Below are positions 87-6,044 of a DNA stretch of 16,903 nt, piece by piece (the stretch's first letter is position 1; each line of letters opens with the position of its first letter). The stretch is from NCBI GenBank assembly GCA_018992565.1, contig JACVGW010000060.1, positions 1 to 16,903 on the forward strand. The letters run 5' to 3'. This stretch comes from Theionarchaea archaeon. GTDB lineage: Archaea > Methanobacteriota_B > Thermococci > Methanofastidiosales > SZ-28-30. The position numbers were made by a program, and so were the translations under genes. Under the pieces are notes generated by a model. That model saw only the letters and a program-made list of their open reading frames with translations, had not been told where the DNA came from and ran no database searches.

Positions 87-608
87 TCATGCCATATCCA
101 GCACTTTACGGAAAGCTGTTGAGAAAAAGAAGCTGCACAGGAAATACCAGCCCAGCCAGCCCAGTGTACTCCCGAAATAGGGGAGCGTAAAGGGCAGATC
201 AATCACCAGACTAGCAGCTGCAGGTTGGCTACGCACCCATCCAAAGAAGACCATGATGGGAACAAGGGTAATCATCATGGGTTTCATTGTCATTCCTGTC
301 ATTTCCGCCTGTTGTTCCTTCACTTTCTTTCCTCTTGCTTCAAGCTTGCGCAGTTCCTTCTTATTCCCTGTTTTCTGTGCCTGGAGCATTCGGCTCTGGT
401 AATCAGACATCTCCTTTCGTATAGTCTTTAGTTTGTCCTGATCCACCAGGAAGTACTGGGCGCCGACTGAAAATACGCCCACAAGAATGGAGACAATGAA
501 CACTGCGTATATGCCGGGCAAGTCCCAGATAAACCCCAGTCCACCGTCTAGAAACCCATAGAAGTAGCTTGCGATTTCGCCCAGGACATCCCAAATTCCT
601 AATATCAT
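87..608 (-). CDS. EMC3/TMCO1 (DUF106) family membrane protein, Oxa1-superfamily insertase
   Basis: TM segment, then a charged coiled coil (VDQDKLKTIRKEM...QQAEM), MKPMMITLVP, and C-terminal LGWLGWYFLCS...FRKVL motif. Usual position downstream of secY. Confidence 0.9.
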   Translation of the reverse strand: MILGIWDVLGEIASYFYGFLDGGLGFIWDLPGIYAVFIVSILVGVFSVGAQYFLVDQDKLKTIRKEMSDYQSRMLQAQKTGNKKELRKLEARGKKVKEQQAEMTGMTMKPMMITLVPIMVFFGWVRSQPAAASLVIDLPFTLPYFGSTLGWLGWYFLCSFFFSTAFRKVLDMA

Positions 609-3541: not shown

Positions 3542-4038
3542 GCTACTGCCTCCTTCATGTTCTTCAGTACTGAATCCACTGCATCCCCTGCCGTGATGTG
3601 AGCGCCCTTTATCCTGTCCTCTGAGGGCAGTATTGTCTCCCCGTAGGGAATGTCAAGCCCTGCATCAGCTGCTCCCTTGAGAGCTGCAAATAGCCGGGAT
3701 CCGGGGACAATCCGGTTAACACCAATATCCAGGACTGCTTTCTCAATCCCTTCCTTGAGTGCACGCACTCCGCACAAGTAGCCTGTCAGATATGCTGCGG
3801 GTATATTAGAAGTGGGCAAGCTCCATCCAAAGCTCTTGAGTTCACCGGAGTGAGCACAGGCCAGCGTTTTGTCACCCTGAGTTTCTGCCCTGACAACCTG
3901 AACAGCCACATGCTTCAGTGACTTTCTCACCACAAGCCTGTCCCGCCCTGATCGCACCATAGTGATCCGCTGGTGATAGTCTGTCTTTCCTTCTCGCCTC
4001 CGCCTGGAGGCCACCCGGTAACGAGGTCCATGCGCCAT
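3538..4038 (-). CDS. rpl18: 50S ribosomal protein L18 (uL18)
   Basis: [49 protein letters not shown]. Confidence 0.98.
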
Positions 4039-4040
4039 GG

Positions 4041-4496
4041 TTATCGCCTCTTTCGTACAAGGCTGTGTTCATCTATGTATGTACGCAGGTGGGTCACACT
4101 CCTGAAGGCTCCACCCTTGGCCATCCTGTACAGCCTGCGGTAGACGTCACGCTCAATGTATCGAGTGTCTCTCATAGTCTTGAGTTCGCGTCTCTGGGAT
4201 CTGATTCTCTGCATCCATCGCCCTTTCCGGGAGCTGCGTGCGTTCGCAGTACCTTTTCTTGTTCCATAGCCTTTTCTTCGACCTTTTTTTCTTTGGAGAG
4301 TCCTCTTTCTAGCCCTCACATGAGAGATAGCTTTCTCCGGCTTCTTCTTGATAAGTCCCCTGTGAACCAACTTCCTGATGTCTTCCCGAGTAATGGCCAT
4401 GGAAATCTCTTCTGCTCTCTCTCTGTCCAGCCATACCCGGTGGACTCCACAATCCATCACATCTGACGCTATCCGTTTCTGGACACTGAGGTTCAT
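4041..4496 (-). CDS. rpl19e: 50S ribosomal protein L19e (eL19)
   Basis: L..QKRIAS....[44 protein letters not shown]. Confidence 0.98.
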
Positions 4497-5116
4497 TCAA
4501 CCACCTCGATACCCTCGTCTTCTGCACGTTCCAGTACGTCTTCTCGTTCATCTTCAGTGAGTTTATCAGATACATGCCATGACACAATAACATCTCTCAG
4601 GGGGAGGAGGGATTCCAGCTCTTCAAGAGATGCAATTTTGGCAACTCTCACTTTGGGATTTGCCACATACAGGTTCTTTTCACGGGCTGCTCGTACCAGA
4701 TCAAGTTTCTTGCGGTTTCCCACTCCAGAACTAATTCGAAGAACATAAGGTGTCTGAGGTTTTTTCTTCGATTTCCGACCTGATTGTGACTTTCTTTTTG
4801 ATTTTCCTTCTGATAGCTGGGCCGCTTCTGCTGACTCTTCTATCTGAATTCGATTGATATCCTGAAGAGTATGAACAGTGATCTCAGGAGCACCTCGAGG
4901 ATGCCACCCTCGTATCAACTTGGGGCTCCTGTACCCCACAGTTACCGAGAAGGGCTTGGCCCGTTCCCTGGCACGCATTTTGCTTCTCTTTCCCCTGGGT
5001 TTCCTCCAGGAAGCTTTCTTGAATCGTTTCAACTTCCAGTGTTCCTGATGGAGAAATGCAGGTCTCTTCTGTTTCATACTCCGTCGCAGCCGCAATAATC
5101 GATTCTTGTCCGTCAT
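4493..5116 (-). CDS. rpl32e: 50S ribosomal protein L32e (eL32), extended 207-aa form
   Basis: KRPAF, WRKPRG..SKMR, VGYRSPK..RG.HP.G, RISSGVG.RKK...ANP core. Position between L6 and L19e. Has an internal insert and a ~52-aa C-terminal extension. Confidence 0.95.
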   Translation of the reverse strand: MTDKNRLLRLRRSMKQKRPAFLHQEHWKLKRFKKASWRKPRGKRSKMRARERAKPFSVTVGYRSPKLIRGWHPRGAPEITVHTLQDINRIQIEESAEAAQLSEGKSKRKSQSGRKSKKKPQTPYVLRISSGVGNRKKLDLVRAAREKNLYVANPKVRVAKIASLEELESLLPLRDVIVSWHVSDKLTEDEREDVLERAEDEGIEVVE

Positions 5117-5649
5117 TTCAGTTTCACCCCGTCTCTTTCAATGAGGTATATCCCATCCTGGAATACCCGAGGATCTCTATGTCTCACCCGTGTGGCCTGT
5201 TCCAGGTTGGCTGCAGTCTGACCAACATGTTCTTTGCTGATGCCAGTAACAGTAATAGCTTCTGCCTGTACTTTGACCTGGGTGTCTCCCATGATATTCG
5301 CATAGCGGGGATACTTCTCGCCCAGAAAGTTGTCTATCTTGACCTTATCCCCATCGACAGTGACATTCATGGGGAAGTGGGCATAGAAGACTTTCAACTT
5401 GTATTCGAATCCTTCCTGTACACCATGCACCATGTTGGCAGCATGAGATGCAATGGTGCCCAGTGCAGCAACATCACACTTTCTGCTGGAAGGAGTTGAC
5501 ACTACGATTCTGCCATCATCTATACGGATGACTGCAGAGGGCACTTTGAAGGTCTTGGTGAGTGTACCTTTTTTTCCTGTGACAGTGAGGGTTTTCCCCT
5601 CGAGTTCCACAGTTACTCCATCTGGTATGAGGACTTCTTTCTCTTCCAT
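5113..5649 (-). CDS. rpl6: 50S ribosomal protein L6 (uL6)
   Basis: IPDGVTV, GFEYKLKVFYAHFPMNV, NFLGEKYPR, VGQTAANLEQAT, DPRVFQDGIY. Confidence 0.98.
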   Translation of the reverse strand: MEEKEVLIPDGVTVELEGKTLTVTGKKGTLTKTFKVPSAVIRIDDGRIVVSTPSSRKCDVAALGTIASHAANMVHGVQEGFEYKLKVFYAHFPMNVTVDGDKVKIDNFLGEKYPRYANIMGDTQVKVQAEAITVTGISKEHVGQTAANLEQATRVRHRDPRVFQDGIYLIERDGVKLK

Positions 5650-5657
5650 GCCATCAC

Positions 5658-6044
5658 CTAGTACACATATGCCAGCAGGCGTCCTCCCATCTCTCCTGAT
5701 TCAGCCTCCAGGTGATCCATGACCCCCTTGGGGGTGGACACAATGAGGATACCGAATCCTTTGGCAGGGAGGTACCGCCTCTCCCATTTCTCAAACTCAT
5801 TCCACTTGGATGCATGCCTGGGCTTTATGACCCCGCACCTGTTGACATTCCCCAAAAGTTCTGCCTTGAACTTTCCATTTTGTGGGTCATCAACGTACTC
5901 GAATGTTCCAATGTAGTTATGCTTCTGCATGACCCGCAGGACATTCCCTATAGCCTTGGAATAGGGCACAACACAGTACCGCTTCCGAGCTTTCTCGTGG
6001 ATATTGATGTTGGACAGGGCATTGGATAAAGGATCGTTGAGCAT
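5658..6044 (-). CDS. rps8: 30S ribosomal protein S8 (uS8)
   Basis: MLNDPLSNALS..., GVIKPR, WERRYLPAKGFGILIVST..GVM.H.EA...GGRLLAYVY. Start reassigned to the ATG at 6044 (128 aa, AGGTGG SD), because the longer 6197 ORF overlaps S14. Confidence 0.97.
   Translation of the reverse strand: MLNDPLSNALSNINIHEKARKRYCVVPYSKAIGNVLRVMQKHNYIGTFEYVDDPQNGKFKAELLGNVNRCGVIKPRHASKWNEFEKWERRYLPAKGFGILIVSTPKGVMDHLEAESGEMGGRLLAYVY

Follow-up and report, generated by a model that had tools for sequence, protein, structure and literature searches.

The window analysed here is a stretch of 16,903 nucleotides of DNA from a Theionarchaea archaeon. The gene order on its minus strand is uS8, uL6, eL32, eL19, uL18, uS5, uL30, uL15 and SecY, so that eL32 is flanked by uL6 and eL19, which is its position in the archaeal ribosomal protein operon. 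The start of eL32 overlaps the stop of uL6 by four bases (5113-5116), and its own stop overlaps the start of eL19 in an ATGA, as the reading frames 4493..5116 and 4041..4496 confirm for the overlap that had been predicted. The features of the locus are the following:

4493..5116, minus strand: eL32 gene, an open reading frame of 207 codons plus a TGA stop
4895..5116, minus strand: basic N-terminal arm of eL32, residues 1-74, alignable with the canonical eL32 chains in archaeal ribosome structures
4655..4894, minus strand: copy 1, the canonical C-terminal beta-alpha-beta-alpha-beta unit including the insertion, residues 75-154
4748..4849, minus strand: Lys/Arg/Ser-rich insertion, residues 90-123, in the copy 1 loop from helix 1 to strand 2
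4496..4654, minus strand: putative copy 2, the acidic extension, residues 155-207 (53 aa), based on models, hhalign and charge
4493..4496, minus strand: ATGA overlap of the eL32 stop (TGA) with the eL19 start (ATG)
4041..4496, minus strand: eL19 gene, directly downstream (Pfam PF01280 and PF25476)

The reading frame encodes 207 aa and contains exactly the sequence quoted in the original prediction; its translation also bears out a core ending in ...LYVANP154 with an extension behind it. The stop codon occupies 4493-4495, and residues 156-207 correspond to 4496-4651. The full-length protein scores 97.3 bits against PF01655 (cut-off 25) and 121.5 bits against the NCBIfam equivalog NF006332 (cut-off 120). 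With these scores, its operon position and its invariant residues, the whole 207-aa protein is eL32 (Ribosomal_L32e). Public annotations name the extension-bearing proteins simply "50S ribosomal protein L32e" or "hypothetical protein".

The order to which the window belongs is that of the Theionarchaea and Methanofastidiosa, by source names. Within it, the N-terminal arm is the most conserved part of the protein (mean pairwise identity of 0.66). In the full-length AF2 model, copy 1 comprises the elements E77-81, H84-107, E125-128 and H134-146, and it retains the signature of the family (R127-I128 and V132-G133-N-R-K-K137). W37, R38, G42, R48, G61, P65, R69, H72, G75, G133 and N153 are invariant in an alignment of 46 sequences. 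The basic insertion is modelled with a lower pLDDT (10-residue block means of 63-71 over residues 101-120); among the 30 loci aligned it is seen in L001-L003 only, and in 38 relatives it is between 3 and 46 aa long.

Canonical archaeal eL32 (4v6u_Bb, 6skf_Bd and 9sra_Bb; 125-130 aa) is similar to the window protein in the arm and copy 1 (E = 4e-22 to solved chains), and has the same operon position and invariant residues. However, canonical eL32 ends after a single C-terminal unit, whereas the window protein adds an acidic second unit after a linker of 1-2 residues; in the genus of the window protein, copy 1 is also split by a 34-aa basic insertion. The length of about 130 aa that had been given for canonical archaeal eL32 agrees with the sister-family frames (127-130 aa) and with the solved archaeal chains (123-161 aa, halophile forms excepted). 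The L32e of halophiles (1s72_Y, 241 aa; PRK12766) likewise carries a lineage-specific domain appended to archaeal eL32, but this addition is an N-terminal helix-hairpin-helix of unrelated fold (Pfam HhH in P0048 and P0051) and not a copy of eL32. The literature consulted, from which subscription journals were mostly absent, yielded no description of an eL32 duplication or C-terminal extension, and L32 does not appear in PMC3553981.

Origin of the extension

The last 53 residues of the protein are very probably a tandem in-frame duplicate of the C-terminal beta-alpha-beta-alpha-beta unit of eL32 itself. The original prediction had proposed such a duplicate, and it is backed by hhalign, BLASTP, six-frame searches and fold comparison. 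The competing explanation sees in the extension a small alpha/beta domain of unrelated origin, born de novo from 3' sequence or acquired by gene fusion, which converged on a common motif. The Pfam result speaks for the latter: the extension alone matches PF01655 at profile positions 62-107 of 108, but its 14.3 bits (E = 0.05) fall short of the cut-off of 25. The similarity to the eL32 profile that had been expected thus stays under the threshold with Pfam, but it is seen with hhalign. When the extension segments of relatives are searched by themselves, 8 of the 23 match PF01655 (best E of 0.0034) and 15 have no PF01655 match even at an E-value of 10; PF01655 is nevertheless the most frequent family among the matches, the next family being matched by 4/23.

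The hhalign comparison of the extension (23 sequences) with copy 1 (27 sequences) gives a probability of 88% and an E-value of 3e-6, for a single comparison, with 45 columns in register. None of 200 column shuffles reached the score (maximum of 16.4, compared to 29). When the extension is compared to the seven sister-family sequences alone, the probability is 94% and the score 34.9, versus 8.2 in a control with the reversed profile and 23.0 with copy 1 of the order itself. Similarly, BLASTP aligns the extension of the window with residues 82-125 of a 128-aa canonical eL32 from the sister family (14/47 identical, 30%, E = 4e-5), whereas the extension has no BLASTP match in copy 1 of the same protein (E = 0.3). 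By sequence, the extension is closer to canonical sister-family eL32 than to the adjoining copy 1. The missing BLASTP match to copy 1 favors an unrelated domain; the match to canonical eL32 and the hhalign results argue against it.

A six-frame search of 97 sister-family genomes with the extension profile returns a weak match in 41 of them (E from 4e-4 to 9e-3 per genome). Frames of 127-148 aa in a common register make up 38 of the 43 rows, and the four rows checked by their coordinates (G035, G094, G053 and G126) each correspond to the C-terminal end of a canonical eL32 gene. Since these matches are orthologues, they count as one observation and not as 38. That the best sister-family match is usually the end of eL32, in the same register, is again at odds with an unrelated domain. 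On the contrary, canonical eL32 is not reached by the library-wide HMMER search with the extension profile (E <= 0.001), as would be expected of an unrelated domain. When the extension profile is searched against 1.84 billion representatives, 8 of the 10 matches are extension-bearing eL32 or eL32 fragments and none is a stand-alone family of the extension domain; the fact that no other family carries this domain argues for the duplicate, and so does its tandem site beside the template, which makes duplication the simplest origin.

The AF2 model of the extension alone (pLDDT of 83.3) is a beta-alpha-beta-alpha-beta unit with the elements E3-7, H10-19, E23-28 and H34-46 followed by a last strand. 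In the full-length model the elements of copy 2 are E156-161, H164-173, E177-182 and H188-201, and the pLDDT block means (10 residues) are 94-95 over residues 151-200. Foldseek returns 49 rows for the extension model, all of which are ribosome or pre-60S chains, with a TMq of 0.75-0.81 and an rmsd of 1.3-1.9 Å over about 50 columns; eL32 or L32 is the name of 30 of the 49. With VIA-align, searched over 48,161 chains, the top seven rows fall on the last ~50 residues of eL32 chains, with Z between 6.2 and 7.2; eL32 is the recorded name for six of these rows. The structure prediction that had been suggested thus leads to a model which both methods match to eL32 chains first, with rmsd values of 1.3-2.1 Å. 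The range matched on the solved chains is shared with copy 1: for example, copy 1 in the full-length model (residues 70-154), which aligns with the solved eL32 C-terminal unit with Z of 7.5-8.7, falls at 176-232 of 1s72_Y, and the extension at 181-230. As modelled, the extension has the fold of the eL32 C-terminal unit and the same order of elements. In VIA-align, a Z under 8 may mean a common arrangement, and this motif is a very common small fold; the runner-up folds, which are mandelate racemase barrel segments, have Z of 5.3-6.0. That TIM-barrel segments come so close to eL32 (6.0 versus 6.2-7.2) is a point for convergence, against which stand the 49 Foldseek rows, all of ribosome chains and 30 of them confirmed as eL32. 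Considering all this evidence, we find an unrelated origin quite improbable. The complex prediction of eL32 1-154 with the extension returned "no answer" (score of 0.05, mark of 0.32).

Behind eL32, the structures most similar to the extension are segments of barrel enzymes, of the mandelate racemase type and from quinolinate phosphoribosyltransferase. A unit of this kind has been proposed as the smallest element from which TIM barrels are built, and the small beta-alpha unit has been discussed as a possible ancestor of larger barrels (PMC11354259). In the eL32 of the window this unit would actually be duplicated in tandem, and the protein may be regarded as a natural two-unit version of a candidate barrel ancestor. 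The fold search with the full-length model gave no sensible match of a solved chain across both units, the only row spanning them having an rmsd of 9.3 Å.

Ribosomal proteins usually gain tails or lose segments. One that contains an internal repeat is the two-domain uL6, and such duplications are, as far as known, ancient and universal, with both domains binding rRNA. The eL32 of the window would likewise have grown by duplication of its own domain but, unlike in uL6, the duplication is restricted to a single order of archaea and the basic signature is missing from the added copy. The extension would be a rare case of the growth of a ribosomal protein by self-copying.

Distribution, charge and conservation of the extension

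The extension profile finds the extension in frame in 31 of the 34 genomes of the order; no extension turned up in the sister family f5 (97 genomes) or in f6 (two genomes). Among the aligned loci, it is in frame in 23/23 from the order and absent from 7/7 of the sister family; in 30 genomes of the order, the in-frame extension has no internal stops. This distribution bears on the idea that the reading frame is an artefact, with the true end of eL32 at residue 154 and a frame prolonged by the wrong joining of two genes or by a stop codon lost in sequencing or assembly. No observation in its favor was found; one RNA-library contig of low depth (3.2) has a single extra T behind 4759, within the copy-1 insertion. 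On the other side, the extension is in frame in independent assemblies, the identical eL32 protein occurs on two contigs, DNA contigs of two other runs, which may include the source sample, span 4000-5589 and 4000-5700 without indel, and the fold over residues 151-200 is predicted with confidence. An RNA-library contig also crosses the junction between the two copies; the RNA-library contigs cover the gene in parts, with 4342-4569, which includes most of the extension, outside them, and RNA libraries can contain DNA. Conservation across independent assemblies already effectively refutes an artefact, to which we give almost no credence. The original prediction had itself considered a stop lost in assembly, and the retention of the extension in relatives disposes of it.

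The most likely history is a single duplication at the root of the Theionarchaea and Methanofastidiosa order, or close to it, with retention of the copy ever since. The extension would then be a shared derived character of this order with respect to its relatives of the Thermococcaceae type.

P0060 is a divergent extension-bearing eL32, of which the related-locus search of genome contigs found no relatives. In a quick tree of eL32 built without the extension, it lies on the extension-bearing side, as a long branch beside another long branch.

The two copies differ in charge. The count of 16 D/E and 6 K/R given earlier for the 52-aa extension is correct; the 53-aa version (K155-E207) has 7 K/R and 16 D/E, for a net charge of -9. 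In relatives the extension is net negative in 23 cases out of 23 (-1 to -9), versus a mean of +3.8 for copy 1. Extensions of the Methanofastidiosa type range from -1 to -7, and a charge as negative as -9 is characteristic of the Theionarchaea type. In the window, the extension takes the net charge of eL32 from +33 to +24 and its pI from 11.7 to 10.6. Without the extension, the net charge of eL32 is +20 to +33 in the clade, compared to +24 to +27 in the sister family.

The R-I...V-G-x-[KR]-K-[KR] signature is presumably an rRNA contact. All 27 copy-1 sequences have the R, the I and the G, and 26-27 of them have the [KR]-K-[KR] residues. In the alignment, copy 2 has the G in 3/23, D or E at the first basic position in 20/23, and K or R at the position of the invariant R in 7/23. 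In the window, V-G-x-[KR]-K-[KR] of copy 1 aligns with L-T-E-D-E-R of the extension, which bears out the replacement of the basic patch that had been noticed at first. From these alignments, the signature is lost in copy 2, which would make it a homologue by descent of the C-terminal unit and not its functional equivalent. Copy 1 has retained the basic and glycine residues that are invariant in the family. Copy 2 would have retained the hydrophobic core and the helix caps, lost the signature and become net negative.

The extension evolves faster than copy 1 (mean pairwise identity of 0.38 versus 0.49), and S9, E11 and A44 are its sole invariant or nearly invariant positions. Extensions of the Theionarchaea type have a conserved W/Y-rich strand and an ELESL helix. 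With a tandem duplication that is recent and limited to one order, and with the subsequent loss of the signature and reversal of charge, this eL32 would be an exceptionally clear example of neofunctionalisation within the ribosome.

Possible roles of the extension

The best explanation overall is that the extension is a duplicate of single origin which forms a folded, acidic, generic module on the 50S subunit, and we regard it as probable. Taken by itself, the functional part, in which copy 2 acts on the solvent side through charge and bulk, is tentative. Copy 2 would be a folded acidic knob, not bound to rRNA, at the solvent-exposed C-terminus of eL32. The selected property would be generic negative charge and bulk and not a specific conserved binding site; for example, copy 2 may keep the very basic free eL32 soluble and off non-cognate RNA, or may set the local surface charge of the ribosome. 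On this proposal, the 50S subunit of these uncultured archaea should show additional protein density at one defined site; a PDB search returned no solved ribosome from the order.

Acidic tails occur on the eL32 of other archaea. Among the 10 other eL32 of archaea whose C-terminal tail is at least 25 aa long, eight have a net-negative tail of low complexity, which implies that the C-terminus of eL32 is solvent-accessible. Like the extension, the acidic tails of P0037, P0040, P0042, P0044, P0046, P0049 and P0050 are C-terminal, with net charges of -6 to -23; they are Glu-rich, of low complexity and without sign of a fold, whereas the extension is confidently predicted to be folded and is homologous to eL32. 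The scarcity of invariant residues, the faster evolution and the acidic tails found elsewhere were counted for a generic role. Against it, the extension of some relatives is nearly neutral (-1), and the eL32 of the clade, taken without the extension, is no more basic than that of the sister family, so that an added demand for charge shielding is not apparent.

Alternatively, as considered in the original prediction, copy 2 may serve for docking. A lineage-specific factor, involved in assembly or hibernation or belonging to the membrane or to other machinery, would then bind to it at the solvent side of the 50S subunit. The folded domain has indeed been retained across order-level divergence, and the conserved W/Y-rich strand and ELESL helix of the Theionarchaea type also speak for docking. 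The domain would lie on the solvent-exposed side of domain II if eL32 is placed as in yeast (PMC4671574). However, few surface positions are conserved order-wide (S9, E11 and A44), the extension evolves faster than copy 1 and no candidate partner was found, so that docking is possible but rather unlikely.

The original prediction also mentioned an RNA mimic or built-in chaperone. In this proposal, copy 2 would act in cis over the basic face or the arm of eL32 and be displaced at rRNA binding. More specifically, an acidic "anti-domain" would cover the basic RNA-binding surfaces of free eL32 as an intramolecular RNA mimic, until domain II of the 23S rRNA displaces it, after which it would decorate the solvent side of the 50S subunit. 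The inversion of charge falls precisely on the basic signature, the extension lowers the net charge and pI of the protein, and acidic eL32 tails recur in other archaea, all of which fits such a role. The version in which the extension compensates for the extra basic charge of the insertion was considered and rejected: among 38 relatives, the charge of the extension is correlated neither with the charge of the insertion (Spearman rho of 0.03) nor with its length (-0.02), and this form of the chaperone idea is without support. Moreover, the eL32 cores of the clade are no more basic than those of the extension-less sister family; the nearly neutral extensions of some relatives also count against self-chaperoning. 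Both the general proposal and its anti-domain form are unlikely. If true, the anti-domain would be a built-in chaperone of a ribosomal protein; we know of no dedicated chaperones of ribosomal proteins in this lineage.

The last possibility to be weighed is that copy 2 occupies the space vacated when the order lost eL33. PF01247 (eL33/L35Ae) is matched in 0/34 genomes of the order, including that of the window, and in 7/7 of the sister-family genomes searched. However, an acidic domain would be a poor substitute for an RNA-binding protein, and the co-occurrence of the two traits is a single phylogenetic event. The two genomes of f6 have neither an eL33 match (0/2 over the cut-off) nor the extension, their eL32 frame being of 108 aa. 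In yeast, eL32 is explicitly placed outside the cluster of domains II and VI which holds eL33 (PMC4671574). The proposal is weakened by the absence of both traits in f6 and by this position of yeast eL32, and we consider it highly improbable.

The eL32 gene and its C-terminal extension

The features concerned are the following.

4493-5116, minus strand: eL32 gene, an ORF of 207 codons
4493-4496, minus strand: ATGA overlap of the eL32 stop and the eL19 start, from the ORF coordinates and the sequence
4496-4654, minus strand: extension (residues 155-207), which begins right after P154, the end of the canonical unit

The protein scores 97.3 bits against Pfam PF01655 (cut-off 25) and 121.5 bits against the NCBIfam equivalog NF006332 (cut-off 120) and, by these profiles, belongs to the eL32 family. 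Its gene is part of the typical archaeal operon of ribosomal proteins (uL3, uL4, uL23, uL2, uS19, uL22, uS3, then eS4, uL5, uS8, uL6, eL32, eL19, uL18, uS5, uL30, uL15, SecY), and at its start there is a four-base overlap with the uL6 stop. The translation of 4493-5116 agrees exactly with the letters quoted in the original prediction and, as was claimed there, the frame continues past the canonical unit up to the overlap with eL19. The extension is also acidic, as had been stated, with 16 D/E and 7 K/R (net -9).

The operon ends with SecY, and the next gene downstream encodes an EMC3/TMCO1-like membrane protein (87-608, minus strand; PF01956, E 2e-28); we take this to be the known archaeal Oxa1/YidC-like insertase arrangement.

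Distribution in one archaeal order

The nearest database proteins have the source names Theionarchaea archaeon, Candidatus Methanofastidiosa or Methanofastidiosum (the order, below), and carry no annotation beyond "hypothetical protein" or "50S ribosomal protein L32e". A whole-protein search of 41 related genomes matched 38. Wherever an order genome has an eL32 match, query residues ~124-206 are matched as well, in the same open frame and with no stops, the exception being genome G026, where the match is cut at a 66-aa frame. The eL32 frames of seven genomes of the sister family f5 are 127-130 aa long. When 30 fetched loci are aligned, all 23 order loci have the extension and the seven f5 loci all stop after a single unit. 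With a profile built from the extension (alignment A1), 31 of 34 order genomes are positive, and those missed are 68%, 69% and 85% complete. Neither 97 f5 genomes nor two genomes of another family, f6, match this profile strongly; the f6 eL32 lies in a 108-aa frame.

Searched against 1.84 billion representative proteins, this profile gives ten matches at E <= 0.001. Of these, eight are eL32 proteins, or fragments of eL32, that carry the extension and two are repeat proteins with a common "ERAEELGI"-like word; the extension domain is therefore confined to eL32. One of the eight, P0060 (164 aa, metagenome source, profile E 6e-5), is a much more divergent eL32 which lacks the N-terminal helix of the others, and may extend the distribution beyond the sampled families.

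The original prediction named absence from close relatives, together with a stop lost by assembly error, as an objection, and neither holds. An artefact is rejected on the basis of the in-frame extension across the order genomes and of DNA contigs from two further public runs (X9 and X14, which may include the source sample) that carry the gene without indels. The junction between the canonical unit (copy 1, residues 75-154) and the extension (copy 2) is also bridged by a 226-base contig (4576-4800) of a metatranscriptome library, run X18. In that contig (depth 3.2) position 4759, which lies within an insertion of copy 1, is followed by one additional T; this T is absent from the X9 and X14 contigs and may be an error.

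Relationship to the C-terminal unit of eL32

The extension was originally read as an acidic tandem duplicate of the C-terminal domain of eL32, and profile, BLASTP, six-frame and fold searches all support this. Taken by itself, the extension has a below-threshold match (E 0.05) to positions 62-107 of the 108 in PF01655. This family is also matched by 8 of 23 separate extension segments (best E 0.0034), and the runner-up family by four. The hhalign comparison of the extension alignment with an alignment of 27 first units gives a probability of 88% and an E of 3e-6, with 45 columns in register. A repeat of the comparison scored 29.0 with all 27 sequences, 34.9 (94%) when only the seven f5 sequences were used and 23.0 (57%) when only the first copies of the clade were used; none of 200 column shuffles exceeds 16.4, and reversing the profile gives 8.2. 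By BLASTP, extension residues 7-53 match residues 82-125 of a canonical 128-aa f5 eL32 (30% identity, E 4e-5); the extension has no match to residues 1-154 of its own protein.

The most telling sequence test of the duplication was unplanned. In a six-frame search of whole f5 genomes, the extension profile has a weak best match in 41 of 97. Of the rows obtained, 38 of 43 lie in frames of 127-148 aa, at query positions ~5-51, and the four checked by coordinates all correspond to the part of the canonical eL32 gene that encodes its C-terminus. These rows are orthologues, so they count as one observation, but it is very unlikely that a chance match within 2 Mb of genome would fall on just these 44 residues.

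The AlphaFold2 model of the full-length protein (mean pLDDT 81.4, block means 94-95 over residues 151-200) predicts the same β-α layout for copy 1 (E77-81, H84-107, E125-128, H134-146) and the extension (E156-161, H164-173, E177-182, H188-201). Folded alone with its own 23-sequence alignment, the extension has an identical layout (pLDDT 83.3). Foldseek of the extension model against the PDB returned 49 rows, every one a ribosome or pre-60S entry chain (TMq 0.75-0.81, rmsd 1.3-1.9 Å over ~50 columns, E-values 2e-3 to 1e-2), and in 30 of them the chain or entry is named eL32/L32 by sequence search. VIA-align, which is independent of Foldseek, placed seven of 48,161 representative chains first, all over their C-terminal ~50 residues (Z 6.2-7.2; scores below 8 may come from a common arrangement); six are named eL32 by sequence search. 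In the full model, copy 1 matches solved eL32 chains (Z 7.5-8.7) over the same ranges as the extension does, and therefore both superpose on one part of solved eL32. The next ranks for the extension are barrel segments of mandelate-racemase-type enzymes (Z 5.3-6.0); given this small margin and the caveat on Z, the fold evidence supports the duplication and does not decide alone. PMC11354259 discusses a small β-α unit as a possible ancestor of larger barrels; the barrel matches just behind eL32 fit this proposal, which makes a natural tandem duplicate more interesting. The fold search with the full-length model did not support a packing of both units like barrel quarters.

We consider it very probable that the extension descends by tandem duplication of the C-terminal unit; it is a real feature which the original prediction interpreted correctly. 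Halophile eL32 carries N-terminal helix-hairpin-helix domains, whereas the window eL32 has a C-terminal copy of its own unit. Other archaeal eL32 (P0037, P0040, P0042, P0044, P0046, P0049, P0050, also P0038 and P0052) differ by low-complexity C-terminal tails of 27-91 aa, and no self-copy was seen among the tailed and helix-hairpin-helix forms examined. No published description of the duplication was found in the full text searched, whose scope excludes most subscription journals; as far as that text goes, the acidic self-copy adds an unreported form to the known eL32 family, conserved across one archaeal order.

Loss of the basic signature and possible roles

The tandem duplicate has been kept across the order with the basic family signature lost and a negative charge. 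In copy 1 and canonical eL32, the R and I of "R-I-A" and the G of "V-G" are present in 27/27 sequences and the [KR]-K-[KR] that follows "V-G" in 26-27/27. At the aligned positions of the extension the G is kept in 3/23. D/E occupies the first basic position in 20/23 and the second in 11/23 (the second is hydrophobic in 11/23), and only the third keeps R/K (18/23), so that the basic patch is replaced, as predicted. Judged from these residues, the extension is a homologue of the eL32 C-terminal unit that lacks that unit's signature. It is net negative in all 23 relatives (mean -4.6, range -1 to -9; -1 to -11 among 38 database relatives); by comparison, copy 1 has +3.8 and the unit of f5 has +3 to +5.

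Copy 2 would not bind rRNA and would lie on the solvent side. According to PMC4671574, eL32 of yeast is bound to domain II of 25S, on the side exposed to solvent, with a bridge to domain I. In other archaea the eL32 C-terminus tolerates tails of 27-91 residues. Among the tails of at least 25 aa (n = 10, a sample biased by the length window of the protein search), eight have a negative net charge (as low as -23) and the remaining two are rich in Lys (as high as +20); the C-terminus therefore must be exposed. Such recurrent acidic appendages suggest a generic electrostatic benefit, which is the role favoured here for copy 2, if only tentatively. That copy 2 is a specific docking module seems unlikely: only S9, E11 and A44 (extension numbering) are invariant or nearly so, and mean pairwise identity within the order falls from 0.66 (N-terminal arm) and 0.49 (copy 1) to 0.38 (extension); the constraint on the extension is therefore on its fold and its acidity, and not obviously on a specific interface. 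A self-chaperone that mimics RNA in cis, for which an acidic copy might serve, is less probable again.

A replacement of eL33 by copy 2 would agree with the searches for PF01247 (L35Ae), which matched none of the 34 order genomes (one of them the window's own genome, 88% complete) and 7/7 f5 genomes; however, f6 lacks both eL33 (0/2 genomes) and the extension, and yeast eL32 lies outside the eL33 cluster according to PMC4671574, which leaves this idea highly improbable.

Copy 1 is split between helix 1 and strand 2 by a Lys/Arg/Ser-rich insertion (4748-4849, minus strand; residues 90-123), modelled partly as a long helix at lower confidence. Simple charge compensation was rejected: the charge of the extension does not follow the charge or length of this insertion (rho 0.03 and -0.02, n = 38), and in-clade eL32 cores are no more basic than f5 cores. 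Among the 38 relatives the insertion varies from 3 to 46 aa and from -2 to +14 in net charge, so that it can be likened to a protein "expansion segment" of Theionarchaea-type eL32.
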